DNA from: a virus
Lineage: Duplodnaviria > Caudoviricetes
Length of the DNA stretch: 64,000 bases
Virus record (IMG/VR): IMGVR_UViG_3300045391_003317
Location: 6,720 to 70,719 of that record
Direction: 5' to 3' (one strand)
Shown: piece after piece, positions 12,292 through 64,000 of the stretch
Layout: each line of letters opens with the position of its first letter
Numbering within the stretch: the first letter of the stretch is position 1
Position numbers and translations under genes: made by a program
Notes under the pieces: model-generated
Told to the model about the DNA's origin: nothing
Seen by the model: only the letters and a program-made list of their open reading frames with translations
Database searches by the model: none

Positions 12292-14328
12292 ATGGCGAAG
12301 AGGCAACGAATTGTTCTGACGATGATCGTCAAGAACGAGTCGCGCGTGATTCGCCGATGCCTCGAGTCCGTAAAGAAACACATCGACGCTTGGGTTATCA
12401 GCGACACCGGGAGCACCGACGGCACGCAGGATATTATCCGAGAGGCGCTTGCTGGTATTCCCGGAGAACTGCTAGAGCGCCCATGGGTTGATTTCGCGAC
12501 TAATCGCAACGAAGCCATTGAGGCGGCGCAGCAGTTCTCTCCTGATTATTGCCTGACGCTCGATGCCGACGAGGAGTTCACGACGAAGCCGGGCTTTTCA
12601 TTCGCCGGACTCGTCAGCGACGTCTATGACGCGGTATTTGAGATGTCCGCCGGCAAGTGGCCGCGCGCGATCCTGTTCAAGCCGCATCTTCGATACAAAT
12701 ACGTCCTCGACGAGACGCTTGTAGGCGGTGAAACGCGAGACTGTCTGCCCGCATGCCTGGTGATTTCGCGCACCGATGGTGCTCGTAATGCTCAGGGGTT
12801 AGTCGAAAAGTACAACCGCGACGTCGAGGTGCTACAGCGAGCACTCGAGAAAGAGCCCGAAGAGTCGCGCTATTGGTTCTACTTGGCCCAGCGTCTCATG
12901 GGAGCCGGGCGCTACAGCGAAGCGATCGTTGCATTCGAAAAGCGACTAACGTTCACGGAAAAAGGGTTCGGCGGTGAGCTCGCGTATAGTCAGATGCTCA
13001 TCGGGCAATGCCTCGAGGAGCTCGGCGCACCGTTCGAAGTCTACCGGAACGCATACCTGACTGCGTGGAACATGAACCCAAAGCGCGCGGAGCCGCTCTA
13101 TGCGATCGCGTGCGTTCATTCCAAGCGCGGGGAGCATCCTCTCGCGGAGCTTTACGCAAGAGCGGCGCAGCGCATTCCTAGGCCGATCGAAACGCTGCCT
13201 TGCGACGATAGCGTTTACGCCTTCCGCGCTGCAGACCTTTTGGCCGGAGCGCTCGCCGAGCAGGGAAAACTGTTCGAAGCGGTCGACATACTCGAGAAGC
13301 TTTTGAAGTTGCCGCAGCTGCCAGAAACAGAGCACGAGCGGTTCCGCGAGAACATCCGGTTGATTCGCGGCGCCCAGACCAAGGAAGAGGCCGCAGCGCC
13401 GACGCTCGGTCCTGATGAAGCTACCTACGAGAACCAGGCGAATATGATTCGTCGGGGCGGTATCGCTGCATTCCGTCGCATGGGACTCGAGTATCTGAAC
13501 AGCTTTCAAGCGCAGTCGCTGCCTTCTCCGGTCCGCTGGCTTTGGATTGTCCTCGTCGCGCTGTTCGGCAGGTGGCCGGCAATAATCGGCGCCATTGCGG
13601 CGGTACCGATCGCGATCTGGGCTTGCCTTCCGATCGCGCCGCAACATGTCGTCGGATACGCAGTTCTCGGCTCTGCCCCGCTGCTTTACCTCGCCGGTCG
13701 CCGTCGTCTGCAAGACGCGCCGATCGCTGCGCTCACTCTGTTGGCGATCGGATTCGCCTTGCGCGGGTCACCGCTTGGGCTCGGCCTGTCCATTTTCGCG
13801 CTGCTCGCCATCAAGGACACCGCCGTCATCACGATTCCGGCGCTTGCCGTCGCCTGGTGGCCCTCCGGGATGCCGTGGATTGGATTCGCTGTAGCCACGG
13901 CCGGGTATGCAGCGGCCGCGCTCGCTGTGCTCCTGGCGCTGTTCGGCTCGATGCTGCCGGCAATGCTCAAAGCTGGCACTCGCGGGCACTCGACGCCGTA
14001 CACGAAAGACCATCAGCGTGGCGCATGGCATCGCCTACTGGTTGATCTGGTGCTCGTATCCCCAGCAACTACGTTGGCGGCACTGTTTGGTCCGCCTCAG
14101 ATTCTCGCTATCGCAGCGGCTCTCGTTGCGGCCCACGCAATCGCTCCCGTTCGCAATGTTCGGCTCGTGCTCGCCGCCGATCTGATTCTGAGAATCGGCG
14201 CGGTCGCTGCATTCGGCTGGTGGATATTGCCGGCAGTAGCACTCGATCTCTACGCCTCTGGACGTCTTCGGACTGTCTACGATCCCGTGACGGCGGCACT
14301 CACGTCGCAACTCGGAATGTCTCGATAA
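12292..14328 (+). CDS. Glycosyltransferase fusion: GT2 + TPR + multi-TM GT-C-like domain
   Basis: MIVKNE..I.RCLES..D.W.I.DTGSTDGT and LDADE (GT2); TPR helices; PDEATY acidic loop, QDAP..KD and about 9 TM segments. Confidence 0.8.
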   Translation: MAKRQRIVLTMIVKNESRVIRRCLESVKKHIDAWVISDTGSTDGTQDIIREALAGIPGELLERPWVDFATNRNEAIEAAQQFSPDYCLTLDADEEFTTKPGFSFAGLVSDVYDAVFEMSAGKWPRAILFKPHLRYKYVLDETLVGGETRDCLPACLVISRTDGARNAQGLVEKYNRDVEVLQRALEKEPEESRYWFYLAQRLMGAGRYSEAIVAFEKRLTFTEKGFGGELAYSQMLIGQCLEELGAPFEVYRNAYLTAWNMNPKRAEPLYAIACVHSKRGEHPLAELYARAAQRIPRPIETLPCDDSVYAFRAADLLAGALAEQGKLFEAVDILEKLLKLPQLPETEHERFRENIRLIRGAQTKEEAAAPTLGPDEATYENQANMIRRGGIAAFRRMGLEYLNSFQAQSLPSPVRWLWIVLVALFGRWPAIIGAIAAVPIAIWACLPIAPQHVVGYAVLGSAPLLYLAGRRRLQDAPIAALTLLAIGFALRGSPLGLGLSIFALLAIKDTAVITIPALAVAWWPSGMPWIGFAVATAGYAAAALAVLLALFGSMLPAMLKAGTRGHSTPYTKDHQRGAWHRLLVDLVLVSPATTLAALFGPPQILAIAAALVAAHAIAPVRNVRLVLAADLILRIGAVAAFGWWILPAVALDLYASGRLRTVYDPVTAALTSQLGMSR

Positions 14329-57849: not shown

Positions 57850-58308
57850 CTACTGAACCCGTACGGCTTTTTGGCGCACCCTGGAGCCCAGGCGGCCTTC
57901 CCACTTCTCCCAAACCGAGGCGAGGTCGAGGCAAACCTCCGGCGTCAGCGATGGCCAGTTCTCGGGAATCGGCGTGCGAAGGAGAACGGCCACGATCCAC
58001 GGCTTGATGTCGTATTGCTCCCTGGCGGCAGCGAGAGCCGCGGCAGAGTTAGGATCGCTGCCAATGGTTCGCATCCCCTCCGGTGGCTCGTCACCACTGA
58101 TCCCTATGTGTAGCGTCTTGCCCAGAACGCGCGCAATGTCGGCCGCTGTCGCGATGGAAATTTGGCGCGTTTTGCCACTTCGGATTTGCGAAACGGCAGA
58201 GCCGCTTATTCCGATGAGATCACCGGTCACGGCGCCGTTCTCTCCGTTCGCTTGGTAAATCTGCTCGAGCAGGTCGCGGACACGCCGAGCCGATTCCGCC
58301 GGCAGCAT
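57850..58308 (-). CDS. CI-like repressor (XRE HTH)
   Basis: GDLIGISGSAVSQIRSGKTRQISIATAADIARVLG; divergent from cro; ATG at 58308 preferred over 58413. Confidence 0.75.
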   Translation of the reverse strand: MLPAESARRVRDLLEQIYQANGENGAVTGDLIGISGSAVSQIRSGKTRQISIATAADIARVLGKTLHIGISGDEPPEGMRTIGSDPNSAAALAAAREQYDIKPWIVAVLLRTPIPENWPSLTPEVCLDLASVWEKWEGRLGSRVRQKAVRVQ

Positions 58309-58370
58309 GTTCGGGTTGCGCCCGGGTTGCTTTTTCGCCTTGGCCACCGAGGGGCACGGTAACCCGAGTG

Positions 58371-58409
58371 TAAGCGGGCTTGACAGATCGACGTGAGCAT
58401 GCTTAAGCT
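58371..58409 (+). promoter_or_regulatory. PR-like promoter with two operators
   Basis: TTGACA 58380-58385, 18 bp, TAAGCT 58404-58409; TAAGCGGGCTTG 58371-58382, TGAGCATGCTTA 58394-58405. Confidence 0.7.
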
Positions 58410-58415
58410 TCATCC

Positions 58416-58775
58416 GTGGCCCGAAATGAGATCGAGACTGAAGGCCGGGAGAGCCTCAAAAAATGGCTCGCCGGCAAAGAGCGTGGCGCGATGACCGCCC
58501 TGGCGGACCAACTCGGCGTGACCGTGCAGCTCATCAGCCAGTGGTGCGCCGGCACCTGTCGGCCTGGTCCGCTGTACTGGGACGCGATCGAGGTAGCGAC
58601 CGAGATTCGCCCGCACGAGTGGCAGACCGAAGAGGAACGCGAGCGCCGCCGAAAGGCGATGCGCGGCGCTGCCGAGGGGCGCGAATCGGAGCCGGCAAAT
58701 GACGATGACGAGCCGCCCGAGTCCGAGCCGCGTGCGAAGAACGCCGACGTCAGCAAGGCGCAGGGGGCTTCGTAG
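58416..58775 (+). CDS. Cro-like HTH protein
   Basis: MTALADQLGVTVQLISQWCAGTCRP. Confidence 0.8.
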   Translation: MARNEIETEGRESLKKWLAGKERGAMTALADQLGVTVQLISQWCAGTCRPGPLYWDAIEVATEIRPHEWQTEEERERRRKAMRGAAEGRESEPANDDDEPPESEPRAKNADVSKAQGAS

Positions 58776-58856: not shown

Positions 58857-59915
58857 GTGAGCGGCAATGAGGCACCGGAGGACAAAATCAACCGGCACCG
58901 CTCTGAGCGCAGAGATCAGGATCTCCAAGAACTTGTCCCGGTTTATTTTATGGAACGCGGCGACGGCAACACGCGCATCGGCAAGGGCGGCGACAGGCCC
59001 ACGATGTGGCTTCAGAACGGGTATTCGCTGCTTGCGATCATGCCCGGCGGCGAGCCGCTCGAGAAAGCGCTCCATCGATATTTCAGGCCGCACCGGCTCG
59101 ACTTTGGCACAAGCCATTATCCAACTAAAATTGTCCTTCCTTACTTGGAGGCCCTGTTGAAGAAGGGCTATGCGACAGATCGTGAGGAGGATGTTGGGCA
59201 TGTTCCGCATGTTCCGATCGATGTCGTCATGCCGGACGCGGTCATGTCCACGGTCGAGGCTCCGCAAGTTACAGGAGATCAGCTGCAGTTCCCGGAATGC
59301 GCGCGGCCTGCCATGCCATCGACGCCCCGGCAGAGGATCGCCGAAGCTGCCGCATATTATCTTCACAGCTCCAAATCTGATGAATGGTACACGCCGCTCA
59401 ATATCATTGAAGCTTCGCGGCGAGTTCTTGGTGCGATTGACCTGGATCCGGCCTCTTGCTGGAAAGCAAACCGACGCATCCGCGCAACCAACTACTACAG
59501 CGAAAACGTGTCCGGTCTTTCTCGTGCGCACCCGTGGCGCGGCCGCGTATGGATGAATCCTCCATACGGAGATCAGGGACCTCTCTTCGCCGCCCGCCTC
59601 GTCGATGAGTTCGTCGCCGGCAATGTAACCGCTGCATGCGCAATGTATTCGCTTACTCACGTAAGCGCGCTTTGGTTTCAGCCGGTCGCTAGAGTCTGTT
59701 GCGCCCTCGCGGTCACTAAAAGCCGAGTGCAATTCGACGTCGGAAGAGAAAATCAAATCAAAACAGGTACGGCGCCAGTGTCTGGACACGTGATCGTTTA
59801 TTTCGGTCAGCGCCTGGATCGGTTTTACAGCGAGTTCAATGAACTTTGCACCGTGTATCCAGGGCCATCGTCGATCGAATCTTTGATTTCTCGAACAACG
59901 GAGGCTGCCGAATAA
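58857..59915 (+). CDS. DNA N6-adenine methyltransferase (phage Dam-like) with N-terminal T5orf172/GIY-YIG-like domain
   Basis: SDEWYTP, IDLDPASC, VWMNPPY; N-terminal VYFMERG..TRIG..LLAIMPG..LEKALHRYF..HRL. Confidence 0.88.
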   Translation: MSGNEAPEDKINRHRSERRDQDLQELVPVYFMERGDGNTRIGKGGDRPTMWLQNGYSLLAIMPGGEPLEKALHRYFRPHRLDFGTSHYPTKIVLPYLEALLKKGYATDREEDVGHVPHVPIDVVMPDAVMSTVEAPQVTGDQLQFPECARPAMPSTPRQRIAEAAAYYLHSSKSDEWYTPLNIIEASRRVLGAIDLDPASCWKANRRIRATNYYSENVSGLSRAHPWRGRVWMNPPYGDQGPLFAARLVDEFVAGNVTAACAMYSLTHVSALWFQPVARVCCALAVTKSRVQFDVGRENQIKTGTAPVSGHVIVYFGQRLDRFYSEFNELCTVYPGPSSIESLISRTTEAAE

Positions 59916-60389: not shown

Positions 60390-60680
60390 ATGGAAGCAGT
60401 CGAAAGCCTCACAGCACAGATTGATCGTCTAAACGATCAAATATCCGCACTCGAAAACGATAGGGATCGACTCGAACGCGAGGTCGAAGATCTCGAAAAA
60501 GAATGCGCGTCATACATGGCTCAAGCCGAGTCGGTCGATCGTGTCAAAATCCTCCACGACGGCATGCGCGAACTTGGCTTCGATCTCGGCGCAGAAGATG
60601 CGCCATACGCAGTGACAACGACGACGCATCGGATGCGCTTGGCCTCAGCACTAAGGCGAGCTGGTCATGAAGCGGAATGA
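60390..60680 (+). CDS. Coiled-coil hypothetical protein
   Basis: GGAG RBS. Confidence 0.6.
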   Translation: MEAVESLTAQIDRLNDQISALENDRDRLEREVEDLEKECASYMAQAESVDRVKILHDGMRELGFDLGAEDAPYAVTTTTHRMRLASALRRAGHEAE

Positions 60681-61695
60681 AATGCTTACGGCCGTGAAGC
60701 GCGTTTCCAGGGTAGCAAACGAAAAGACAACGCTTCCTGTCCTTGCGACTCTTCGCATCGGTGACGGTCAGATCGTAGGCAGCAATCTGCGCACGACCAT
60801 TGTTCACCCGTTCGCGTGCGACGTGTCAGCGTGCGTGTCTGCGCACAAGTTCGGCGCGTCTCTGGCGTCACTAGAAGGCGAAGACGTCAACCTGAAACCG
60901 ATCGATAGCGGCATCACCGTAAGCAACGGAAAACGTCGTCACTTCAAGATGCAAACGATGGCATTCGAAGAGTTCCCGTCGATTGACTCGGTTGACGGAA
61001 AAACGCACGACATCGATCCGGCTTGGTTTGCGCACGCGATTCGTTCCGTCCGCACGGCCGTATACAACCAAGCCGACCGACCCAACCAATGTGGCGTTGC
61101 GCTTTGCTTCGGCGACAAGCCTGGAGCTGCGGCAACGGACGGGAACCGGTGCCATATTCGCGGTCAGTTTTCGCGGGACAATGTCATCGTTTCGAACGAT
61201 TCGATTCCGGCAGTTATCGACTTACTAGAAGCAAGCGAAATGGTTCGCGTCACCGTCTCGACGACAAAAGTTTCTTTTGGAGGCATCTACACCGTAATCG
61301 CGGCTCGTGTGGACGGGATGTTCCCTCCTGTCGATAATATTATTCGCTACGCCGATTGTCCTTTCCACGGATCAATCAATCGAGAAGCTTTCGTGTCTGC
61401 TATCCAGGCGTGCGCTATCGCGTGCGGGACCGCGATGAACATCACGGCTCACTTTGCGCATGGCGAACTGTCTCTGCATGCGTTGAACTCCGATGATGCA
61501 ATGGAGTCGCACGATCACGTCGTGTGCGATTTCGACGACGAGACGGAGAACATAGGCTTCGGCGCCGATTACTTGTTGGACGCGGCAAAAGGAACCGAAG
61601 CGGAGACGCTGACTATCGACTGCGGCGGACCGCTGGATCCTCTCTATCTGCGTGCGGACGATTACGTCGCAGCAATCATGCCGAGGCGAATTTAA
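60667..61695 (+). CDS. dnaN: DNA polymerase III beta sliding clamp (phage-encoded, 342 aa)
   Basis: KTTLPVL, EEFP, AATDGNR, VDGMFPP, IGFGADYLLDA, AAIMPRRI. Confidence 0.9.
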   Translation: MKRNEMLTAVKRVSRVANEKTTLPVLATLRIGDGQIVGSNLRTTIVHPFACDVSACVSAHKFGASLASLEGEDVNLKPIDSGITVSNGKRRHFKMQTMAFEEFPSIDSVDGKTHDIDPAWFAHAIRSVRTAVYNQADRPNQCGVALCFGDKPGAAATDGNRCHIRGQFSRDNVIVSNDSIPAVIDLLEASEMVRVTVSTTKVSFGGIYTVIAARVDGMFPPVDNIIRYADCPFHGSINREAFVSAIQACAIACGTAMNITAHFAHGELSLHALNSDDAMESHDHVVCDFDDETENIGFGADYLLDAAKGTEAETLTIDCGGPLDPLYLRADDYVAAIMPRRI

Positions 61696-61795
61696 TGCAA
61701 AATTTTTTCGACTGCGCCCGGCCCTTCGACCATGGCTCTCCGCACCGTCGCGGCGGTCGTGCGCAGCGCACCGTTTCGGTGGGAGATGTTGCGCG

Positions 61796-62989
61796 ATGAC
61801 CCTTGCCGATCTCGTGTCCGCCGCGCTTCACAACGCCGTCTTCACTGGCATCATGGGCGGCTCACTGGTCGCCGGTCTGCTCTACTCGCTGAAGAGCATC
61901 CCAGGCGCGTTGTGGGAGTTTTTCCTGTGGCGGTTCACGTCGGAGCTACTCGTTTTCAACGAAGACCCGGCGTTCGAGGTTGTCTCAGACTGGCTCGCTT
62001 CGCTGAGGTACGCGCAGCAAGCGCGGCAACTCAGGCTCACGACGCAGAACGAGAACGAACTGAGGTTTTCGCCGGGAATCGGTAAACACCTGATTTGGCA
62101 CCGCGGACGACCCGTCGTTGTCTCGCGTTACGTACCGGACAAATCCGGTGCCGGCGGCAACAGCTGGAAGCGTCGCGAGGACATCCGCATTCAGACGATC
62201 GGCTCGACGCCGACGCTGATGCACGATCTGATTCAGCAGATCATGCAGGCTCGGAGTGGCGCGCGGCAGAGGCAGATCGAAGTGCACATGTTCTCGAGCT
62301 ACTGGCGCCATGCGTGCCGCCGAGATAAGCGCTCGCTCGAATCCGTCGTCATGCGAAGCGAGCAGCGCGATCGCATCGTGCGCGACATCCAAACGTTTCT
62401 CGGGTCGCGCGAATGGTACCGAACGCGCGGTGTACCGTATCGTCGCGGGCTTCTTTTCTACGGTCCGCCAGGGTGCGGCAAAACGAGCTTGGTCATTGCA
62501 CTGGCGAGCCATTTCTGTCGCCCTGTCTATGCTCTCAACCTCGGCAGCGTCACGAATGACGAGGCGCTGATTGAGGCGATTACGACAGTTCCCGAGTCGG
62601 CAATTCTCCTCATCGAGGACATCGACGCGGCACTAGCCCAAAAGAGAGCGCCGGTGCAGGCGTCGACTCCGGACAGTAAAGAAGAGCCGGCCGGCGTGAC
62701 GCTGAGTGCTCTCCTGAACGCAATCGACGGCGTGTTCTCGCGCGATGGGCGAATCCTCATCATGACGACGAATCATCCGGAGAAGCTCGACCCGGCACTG
62801 CGTCGCCCCGGTCGCGTCGATCGCGCGGAGCTCATCGGCGAAATCGAGCAGCAGGAAGTTGCGGCAATGTGCGAGCAGTTCGGCAACGCTTCGGCGCTTA
62901 GCCTCGTTCGCACTCCGATCGCGCCGGCTGAAGTGCAACGGATCTTGCTCGAACAGAGAAGCGAATACGTGCCGGAGGCTGCAGAATGA
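61796..62989 (+). CDS. BCS1-like membrane-anchored AAA+ ATPase
   Basis: N-terminal TM; FEVVSDWL..FSPGIGKHLIWHRG (BCS1_N-like); YRRGLLFYGPPGCGKT, IEDIDA, VTLSALLNAIDG, TTNH..LDPALRRPGRVD. Confidence 0.88.
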   Translation: MTLADLVSAALHNAVFTGIMGGSLVAGLLYSLKSIPGALWEFFLWRFTSELLVFNEDPAFEVVSDWLASLRYAQQARQLRLTTQNENELRFSPGIGKHLIWHRGRPVVVSRYVPDKSGAGGNSWKRREDIRIQTIGSTPTLMHDLIQQIMQARSGARQRQIEVHMFSSYWRHACRRDKRSLESVVMRSEQRDRIVRDIQTFLGSREWYRTRGVPYRRGLLFYGPPGCGKTSLVIALASHFCRPVYALNLGSVTNDEALIEAITTVPESAILLIEDIDAALAQKRAPVQASTPDSKEEPAGVTLSALLNAIDGVFSRDGRILIMTTNHPEKLDPALRRPGRVDRAELIGEIEQQEVAAMCEQFGNASALSLVRTPIAPAEVQRILLEQRSEYVPEAAE

Positions 62990-63189
62990 CCCGCAAGCTC
63001 CGCCCCTCTCTCGGCTTAGCCGCCGCCGTTCTCGGTGACGAGCTCGCTGCTCTCGGTGCTGCCGGCGAGACCGTTCGCGATCTGTTCGCCGACTACCGCG
63101 ACGGCGCAATCTACGTCGCGACAAATTCGTTGCACGAACACGGCATCGTCATCTTTGGCATGTCCGACAGCGAGGAGTCGGCGCGATGA
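62986..63189 (+). CDS. Small hypothetical protein
   Basis: ATGA overlap. Confidence 0.5.
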   Translation: MTRKLRPSLGLAAAVLGDELAALGAAGETVRDLFADYRDGAIYVATNSLHEHGIVIFGMSDSEESAR

Positions 63190-63283
63190 CACTCAGACTA
63201 CCAGCGCGAATATCGGGAGTCGCGCCCCGCTCGTCTGGTCCCGAACGAGACGGAATCGGGACAATTCTCTCGCGGAGGCTCTC

Positions 63284-64000
63284 TTGACCCAACAAATCCC
63301 AGAATACGTAACTCAAGACTACCTCAAACACCTCCACCTACGTTCCGGTGCCGGTTCCGGAAAAGAAGGCGATCGCTGCTCAATCCAAGAATACCGCGCG
63401 TGGCTGAATCTCGACCCGTCGAGTGACGAGATCCCTAAGACCGATAGCGAAGTCGTCGGCCGTTACATTATTGGCTTTCAGGACCGTCTCATCAATGCAG
63501 GCGCTTCAGACGAGCAAGTCTACGAGCTTGTGACGCGACATCTGCCCAAGCTCCACATGTCTGGACGCGGCAAGGCTCTCGAGTCGCGGCGCTCCTATCT
63601 GCTGACCGACATGATGGTGCGCGAATTGGCGCCGCTGTGGCTCGAGGCGCATCCGGGGCTAGCCTCTCATGCGGCGACACTTCGGGCGCTGCCGGAGATT
63701 GTTGACAAGCAGACCGCTGAAGCCGGGGTCGCCGCTCGTGACGCCGCGCGCTCTGCCGCATGGGATGCGCGTCGCAAGGCCTGTACGTCTCTCGAAACGC
63801 GCGTCCGCGAGGCGGTACTAGCGAAGCTGGGACCGTCGAGCTCCGCTGCCGTTGCCAATGCCGCTGCCGATGCCGCTGCCGATGCCGTTGCCGATGCCGT
63901 TGCCGTTGCCGATGCCGCTGCCGATGCCGCTGCCGCTGCCGATGCCGCTGCCGCTGCCGCTGCCGATGCCGCTGCCGATGCCGCTGCCGATGCCGATGCC
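63284..64000 (+). CDS. Ala-repeat phage protein, 3' partial (absent from the ORF track, no stop in window)
   Basis: GGAGG RBS, TTG start; open to the end: MTQQIPEYVTQDYLKHLHLRSGAG...AAWDARRK...AAADAAADAVAD. Confidence 0.8.
   Translation, partial: MTQQIPEYVTQDYLKHLHLRSGAGSGKEGDRCSIQEYRAWLNLDPSSDEIPKTDSEVVGRYIIGFQDRLINAGASDEQVYELVTRHLPKLHMSGRGKALESRRSYLLTDMMVRELAPLWLEAHPGLASHAATLRALPEIVDKQTAEAGVAARDAARSAAWDARRKACTSLETRVREAVLAKLGPSSSAAVANAAADAAADAVADAVAVADAAADAAAAADAAAAAAADAAADAAADADA
63843..64000 (+). repeat. (GCC-GNT)n hexamer tandem repeat
   Basis: GCCGAT/GCCGCT/GCCGTT units encoding Ala-(Asp/Ala/Val). Confidence 0.95.

Follow-up and report, generated by a model that had tools for sequence, protein, structure and literature searches.

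The 64,000-nt stretch of phage DNA analyzed here (the window; bases 6720–70719 of the 70,719-bp IMG/VR record IMGVR_UViG_3300045391_003317) contains on its plus strand a gene (61796..62989; 397 aa) whose product, as judged from its sequence and its predicted fold, is a true member of the Bcs1 family of AAA ATPases. The phage is a temperate myovirus from soil with a genome of 70.7 kb, and its record was rated complete by CheckV; the sequencing runs listed for it are of soil metagenome DNA, with no RNA run among them. In mitochondria, Bcs1 is the machine by which a folded protein is pushed through a membrane. It forms a homo-heptameric ring and moves the folded Rieske iron-sulfur protein in complex III assembly, and it is usually viewed as a solution for this one protein. 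For the phage ATPase, we favor, with a probability of about 0.55, an early-expressed Bcs1-type ring that is anchored in the inner membrane and handles a folded client there. Direct support was obtained for the domain identity, the integrity of the motifs, the fold, the absence of a pore loop, the genomic position and the lack of a conserved neighbor.

Assignment to the Bcs1 Family

Profile searches recovered two domains in the expected order. An earlier note on this DNA had described a BCS1_N-like domain in the middle of the protein and had proposed a hidden Markov model search for it. In this search, the Pfam model BCS1_N (PF08740) scored 80.3 bits (cut-off, 28.1 bits; E-value of 2.2e-22), and residues 27–184 of the ATPase (61874..62347, plus strand) covered positions 3–182 of the 182 profile positions. 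Residues 219–347 (62450..62836, plus strand) matched the AAA model (PF00004) above its cut-off, with an E-value of 3e-23. In addition, PHROG 7485, an existing phage protein family of unknown function, matched the ATPase over its full length (E-value of 1e-96, 325.5 bits; residues 8–390 on positions 14–404 of the 430-position profile).

The closest solved structures by sequence were those of mouse Bcs1 (E-value of 8e-50) and yeast Bcs1 (6.5e-44). A family profile, termed A1, was built from the alignment of 51 relatives. It aligned end to end with yeast Bcs1 (E-value of 5.4e-92, chain residues 44–442) as well as with mouse Bcs1 (4e-90, residues 6–408). When the N-terminal 185 residues were searched alone against the PDB with phmmer, no match was found at E-values up to 1. 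Thus, a profile is needed to link the N-terminal region to Bcs1.

The AlphaFold2 model of the ATPase, which was built on the A1 alignment, showed a mean predicted local distance difference test score (pLDDT) of 90.7 and a predicted template modeling score of 0.83. The top 12 Foldseek matches of this model in the PDB were, without exception, full-length Bcs1 chains (12/12), with mouse Bcs1 (8tp1_A) as the best match (TM-score of 0.76, 30% identity, 415 columns). In the viral structure library BFVD, the top Foldseek matches were BCS1-like ATPases of phages and giant viruses. The full mitochondrial-type architecture that had been claimed in the earlier note was borne out by the end-to-end profile alignment and by the TM-score, and by sequence and model the annotation as a Bcs1-family member is secure.

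Two start codons were considered. The ATG at 61796 is preceded, 10 nt upstream, by GGGAG (61781..61785, plus strand), which reads as a Shine–Dalgarno-like sequence. An in-frame GTG at 61652 would extend the open reading frame (ORF) into the 3' end of the upstream clamp gene. Since all eight of eight close relatives align from the methionine encoded at 61796, the GTG was set aside; as judged from this alignment, the ATPase starts at ATG 61796, and the longer reading is not used by the relatives.

The AAA Module and the Bcs1-Specific Domain

The AAA module had been described beforehand as intact, and its motifs agree with the Pfam match in this respect. Across the 51 aligned relatives, the key residues of all motifs were invariant: G223, G226, G228 and K229 in Walker A (GPPGCGKT, residues 223–230; 62462..62485, plus strand), E274, D275 and D277 in Walker B (ILLIEDID, residues 270–277; 62603..62626, plus strand), T324 and N326 in sensor 1 (TTN, residues 324–326), and R337 and R340 in the arginine fingers (RPGRVD, residues 337–342; with sensor 1 at 62762..62821, plus strand). 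The order of glutamate and aspartate in Walker B was the same in the alignments of the ATPase and of Bcs1.

At the position of pore loop 1, the ATPase carries LGSVTNDE (residues 249–256; 62540..62563, plus strand), which is devoid of the aromatic-hydrophobic-glycine motif and aligns with a stretch of mouse and yeast Bcs1 that is likewise loop-less. A lack of conservation of critical pore-loop residues has been described for Bcs1 (PMC7994207). Because the aromatic pore loop 1 is absent, as in Bcs1, threading or unfolding of a client by this ATPase family appears unlikely from the sequence, and the handling of folded clients is favored.

In the model, the BCS1_N domain consists of a strand, helices, four strands, a loop, a strand and a helix, and this order of secondary-structure elements fits that published for the Bcs1 domain (PMC7994207). 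The loop comprises residues 114–129 (62135..62182, plus strand) and lies between the model strands 105–112 and 129–135. It showed lower pLDDT values and was variable across the family. From the description of Bcs1 in PMC7994207, we infer that it is the putative equivalent of the Bcs1 seal loop.

The Predicted N-Terminal Membrane Helix

A glycine-rich transmembrane helix was predicted at residues 14–32 (61835..61891, plus strand) from hydrophobicity, charge bias and the alignment with Bcs1. Residues 6–32 form a run of 27 residues without charge, and the top 19-residue Kyte–Doolittle window (residues 14–32) reached a borderline value of 1.64. Lysine and arginine are absent before the helix, and two of these residues are found among the 15 that follow it. 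The pattern was shared by nearly all 51 aligned relatives, with 0–1 such residues before the helix and 2–4 in the next 15 residues. The AlphaFold2 model placed the helix at residues 14–47.

With the A1 profile, the N-terminal segment fell on the transmembrane helix in both yeast and mouse Bcs1. The Bcs1 helix is equally glycine-rich, it has the motif N-x-[VY]-F...G..G in common with the phage segment, and it serves as a membrane anchor (PMC7994207). These observations fit a real membrane span with a predicted topology in which the N-terminus is outside and the ATPase cytoplasmic, and the N-terminal transmembrane segment suggested in the earlier note was retained on the basis of the uncharged run, the charge bias and the alignment with the Bcs1 helix. 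In its conservation, the segment equaled the Bcs1 domain (mean frequency of the top residue of 0.54 as compared to 0.48–0.55). In the aligned family, N13, G18 and G21 were conserved to about 90% and S23 to 86%, which suggests that the helix may take part in helix–helix packing rather than being a passive anchor.

Position of the ATPase Gene in the Early Region

Two early operons of the phage are headed by a divergent pair of CI-like and Cro-like helix-turn-helix (HTH) genes (57850..58775; matches to HTH_3 and to transcriptional repressor PHROGs), in which the CI-like gene (57850–58413, minus strand) faces the Cro-like gene (58416–58775, plus strand). RecE- and RecT-like genes are located on the leftward arm. 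The rightward arm comprises, in this order, genes for a Dam-type methyltransferase, two small ORFs, a DnaN-type clamp, the ATPase, an ORF of 67 aa and an ORF with a repeat, beyond which MazG, an integrase, a second methyltransferase and a helicase are encoded.

The sliding clamp gene (60667..61695, plus strand) lies directly 5' of the ATPase gene; its product possesses three DNA_pol3_beta domains and matched phrog_947 with an E-value of 1.7e-50. No convincing terminator was found in the interval between the clamp gene and the ATPase gene. Thus, the position after a beta clamp in the early operon, as stated in the earlier note, was confirmed. The structural side of the phage encodes the large terminase, the tail sheath, the tape measure protein and the baseplate wedge, and tens of kilobases separate the ATPase gene from the genes for the terminase and the tail.

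Relatives and Their Gene Neighborhoods

A word-indexed search yielded 1,572 proteins related to the ATPase at E-values ≤1e-10. The best 120 of these 1,572 proteins all carried BCS1_N and AAA (120/120), with a length of about 364–440 aa and an identity of at most 62%. With the N-terminal 185 residues alone, 604 cluster representatives were found at E-values ≤0.001, and nearly all of them aligned from within their own first 20 residues.

Nine loci of the close clade, whose members are 50–63% identical to the ATPase, were read. In four of the nine (L003, L032, L033 and L035), the ATPase gene followed a divergent HTH repressor switch at a distance of three to six genes, and three of these four loci possessed an integrase-type gene further 3'. 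In the other five loci, the gene stood in arrays of small unknown genes together with DNA-metabolism genes. These loci were either long arrays of this kind or belonged to larger phages; the genes seen in the latter were those for a sigma factor, RecA, RuvB, Cpn60, RtcB, RNA ligase, Endo VII and a primase-helicase. Structural genes were not recognized by Pfam within the shown flank in any of the nine clade loci. The ORFs of the nine loci, and then those of 30 loci, were compared all-against-all by blastp, and no conserved neighbor was found within about 6 kb in the 30 loci. Nothing recurred apart from the ATPase and its antisense shadow ORFs, and shared neighbors were confined to the near-identical pair L032 and L033.

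Among cellular genomes, BCS1_N exceeded its cut-off in three of the 401 Pseudomonadota genomes that were sampled, and the 14 control genomes gave no such match. Two chromosomal copies were inspected (L086:9228-10439 from Methylobacterium brachythecii, and L087:9724-10986), and both resided in cellular neighborhoods rather than in prophages. One chromosomal gene with BCS1_N and AAA was located beside genes of the class II tRNA-synthetase type, the lysine-2,3-aminomutase type (radical SAM) and the DUF218 type, and the other between genes for an AcrB-type pump and a zinc peptidase. A scan of genome contigs mostly picked up generic Walker A and sensor patterns and contained, among the matches listed, one full-length relative in a metagenome-assembled genome of the Acidobacteriota; because of this, it gave no information on the host of the phage.

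Proposed Function and Alternative Explanations

The favored mechanism can be outlined as follows. Once the repressor is lifted, the ATPase would be transcribed together with the rightward early genes. The protein would span the membrane with its one N-terminal transmembrane helix, with the short N-terminus outside and with the Bcs1-specific domain and the active AAA module in the cytoplasm. By homology to Bcs1, a membrane-anchored ring would most likely form and might take up a folded protein or domain into its cytoplasmic cavity. Concerted ATP-driven contraction would then push this client into or across the inner membrane without threading or unfolding it. Here, we infer that a ring assembles and inserts into the membrane, in which direction transport runs and what kind of client is handled. 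The earlier note had envisaged that the phage might extract or translocate a folded membrane client. Translocation is supported by homology only, and extraction by threading is disfavored, since the aromatic pore loop is lacking. As no phage gene travels together with the ATPase gene, a fixed phage partner is less likely to be the client; more likely candidates are a conserved protein of the host envelope or membrane, or a small phage protein that evolves rapidly.

Several findings weigh against this mechanism. The Rieske protein, the sole known client of Bcs1, is exported via the twin-arginine translocation (Tat) pathway in bacteria (PMC13673990), and no match to a Rieske domain was found in the phage genome. 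YjoB of Bacillus subtilis also matches, albeit more weakly (TM-score of 0.61; 112 bits), and the alignment of its solved chain does not begin before about residue 139. Moreover, the N-terminal helix is only moderately hydrophobic, and its insertion into the membrane rests largely on the homology with the Bcs1 helix.

The same membrane location and early expression, as predicted from the sequence, would also suit an ATPase that pulls membrane proteins, such as the receptor, a membrane defense sensor or a respiratory subunit, from the bilayer in the manner of FtsH, Msp1 or Cdc48, and the lack of a conserved phage partner fits a host target. However, the pore-loop-1 position is without the aromatic residue of threading AAA motors, no protease or adaptor domain was found in the ATPase with Pfam, and the defense-system models of PADLOC (IetA, TRIP13) matched through the generic AAA core only, so that extraction appears unlikely. 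An FtsH-type membrane AAA protease is not supported, since the FtsH model scored 68 bits in the AAA core only, against a cut-off of 600 bits, and Pfam revealed no peptidase domain of the M41 type; the protein ends 50 residues past the AAA module. [quoted passage not shown] In the present phage, the ATPase would accordingly bind folded phage proteins at the membrane and help to load these into the head as it assembles. This idea fits the clade poorly because of the position of the gene: it stands in a repressor-headed operon here and in four of the nine clade loci, whereas in the other five it is placed among early or DNA-metabolism genes. Pfam recognized no structural gene in the flanks shown for the nine loci, and the genes for terminase and tail are remote from the ATPase gene in the present phage. 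Participation in head assembly was, thus, judged to be rather improbable.

The adjacent clamp gene brings a replication accessory into play, i.e., a clamp loader for this clamp or a membrane tether of the replisome. Besides the location directly 3' of the clamp gene, a clamp gene about 7 kb downstream of the ATPase gene in L003 and weak matches to clamp-loader PHROGs (E-value of 3.7e-5 and weaker) speak for it. These matches were, however, confined to the generic P-loop core, and the NCBIfam models for replication factor C scored 16–37 bits against cut-offs of at least 280 bits. Furthermore, the protein is a classical-clade AAA ATPase with BCS1_N and a transmembrane helix, for which Bcs1 is the best match in the PDB and in Pfam by tens of orders of magnitude, and the clamp gene is not adjacent to the ATPase gene in 28 of the 29 other loci. 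A role as a clamp loader is excluded by this architecture and these scores, and a replication accessory of any kind is extremely improbable. If the N-terminal helix did not span the membrane, the ATPase could be a soluble or peripheral chaperone that remodels cytoplasmic proteins like YjoB. The borderline hydrophobicity of the helix and the rank of YjoB as the next-best fold match would agree with such a chaperone, but the helix aligns with the glycine-rich transmembrane helix that anchors Bcs1 in the membrane (PMC7994207), and both the uncharged run of 27 residues and the family-wide positive-inside charge bias argue for a membrane span. Hence, a soluble chaperone is regarded as very unlikely.

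Comparison with Known Systems

Mitochondrial Bcs1/BCS1L (yeast, 6sh3 and 9gs2; mouse, 6uko, 8tp1 and 8t14) resembles the phage protein in the order of the transmembrane helix, the Bcs1-specific domain and the AAA module, in size (419–456 aa as compared to 397 aa for the phage protein) and in the glycine-rich transmembrane motif, the E-D order of Walker B and the absent aromatic pore loop, at an identity of about 27–30%. They differ in that the phage protein is encoded in the early operon of a temperate phage without a Rieske gene, and in that the long N-terminal extension seen in yeast Bcs1 is missing from it. YjoB (7w42, 7w46) shares the AAA core and a related N-terminal region with the phage ATPase (Foldseek TM-scores of 0.58–0.61). 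In contrast to Bcs1, with 312 bits, YjoB scored only 112 bits with the A1 profile, and its match omits the N-terminal helix and the first half of the Bcs1 domain.

Phage copies of Bcs1 have already been catalogued and discussed in print, and the present gene is a further member. Iyer et al. (2021) reported that each of the three major jumbo-phage groups has representatives with BCS1 orthologs (PMC7824862), and gp235 of Caulobacter phage CcrColossus is annotated as 'AAA+ ATPase and BCS1 domain protein'. The claim of the earlier note that no function has been described for such phage homologs holds for the literature searched, in which no experiment on any phage ortholog was found, although the homologs themselves had been described before (PHROG 7485, gp235, PMC7824862). 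Annotated phage homologs include CcrColossus gp235, proteins of Brevundimonas vB_BpoS phages, gp57 of Citromicrobium phage RXM and gp347 of PhiPA3. They belong to the same family, have the same architecture and are 31–35% identical over 86–96% of the protein. In CcrColossus and RXM, whose two neighborhoods were read, the ATPase gene is likewise surrounded by small unknown genes. The cultured carriers are mostly jumbo phages of 200–350 kb (of Brevundimonas, Caulobacter, Pseudomonas and Ralstonia), whereas the present phage is a temperate myovirus of 70.7 kb. In PhiPA3, PA1C, PS119XW and related Pseudomonas jumbo phages, the match occurred in two pieces spanning about 1.3–1.4 kb, which points to an insertion or intron there that is absent from the present phage.

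Giant viruses also encode BCS1-like ATPases (Medusavirus, Clandestinovirus, Yasminevirus and Mimiviridae). They have the same fold (E-values of 1e-24 to 1e-28 by Foldseek against BFVD), but belong to viruses that infect eukaryotes, are usually longer (445–700 aa) and show an identity of 17–25%. At several giant-virus loci of IMG/VR, the match comprised the AAA part only.

Possible Origin and Significance

When scored with the clade profile A1, the members of the clade reached 570–597 bits and other phage homologs 201–375 bits. Yeast Bcs1 (312 bits) and mouse Bcs1 (305 bits) lie within the range of the latter. By this comparison of scores, which is not a phylogeny, mitochondrial Bcs1 comes as close to the clade as do most phage homologs, which hints that it has its place within the diversity of the phage family.

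That phages carry a large family with this three-part build, intact and strongly conserved, implies another task of the Bcs1 machine in bacteria. Besides jumbo phages, mid-sized temperate phages also carry the family, and in these it is controlled by a repressor and has no fixed partner gene. Mid-sized temperate carriers, repressor control and the missing partner gene point to an early host-directed role rather than to capsid assembly. As a tentative and rather speculative generalization, Bcs1-type ATPases of phages might provide a self-contained, Tat-independent route by which proteins enter or cross the bacterial inner membrane in folded form during early lytic growth, acting on a conserved component of the host envelope, with the descent of the mitochondrial translocase from a phage gene as a second possibility. 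Such an origin is possible because the domain is common in phages but was found in only three of the 401 sampled Pseudomonadota genomes, and because the bit scores of mitochondrial Bcs1 fall within the phage range. A phage origin is commonly proposed for the mitochondrial RNA polymerase and mitochondrial replication proteins, which would be a parallel. While the uncultured soil phage is no convenient model, the cultured carriers, i.e., phages of Caulobacter, Brevundimonas, Ralstonia and Pseudomonas, make the question testable.

Other Features of the Phage Genome

Directly 3' of the ATPase gene, an ORF of 67 aa (62986..63189, plus strand) with its own GGAGG overlaps the stop codon of the ATPase gene by ATGA. 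This orphan had no match in Pfam or PHROG, no relative among the ORFs of the loci and no usable Atlas match. It is chained by a further ATGA stop–start overlap to a second small orphan ORF of 33 aa (63186–63287, plus strand), and neither of the two ORFs is conserved beside the ATPase genes of the relatives. The following ORF (63284–64000, plus strand), which starts with TTG and is preceded by GGAGG, continues in frame into positions 1–345 of the genome and had no match in Pfam or PHROG. At the end of the record, it passes through a hexanucleotide repeat that codes for alanine, aspartate and valine. Since both ends of the record lie inside one repeat, the genome is, judging from its sequence, probably circular or permuted, and the length of the repeat is uncertain.

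No tRNA genes were found in the phage, and the sole close relative of its tail sheath belongs to one uncultured spring-water phage. In the Dam-type N6-adenine methyltransferase ORF of the rightward arm (58857–59915, plus strand; 352 aa), the domain occupies residues 171–303 only, and the approximately 170 N-terminal residues matched no family. An ORF of 678 aa located 3' of the large-terminase gene (12292–14328, plus strand) matched a beta-1,4-glycosyltransferase PHROG with its first 366 residues (E-value of 1.2e-32), and its location on the structural side is unusual for a glycosyltransferase-like ORF.

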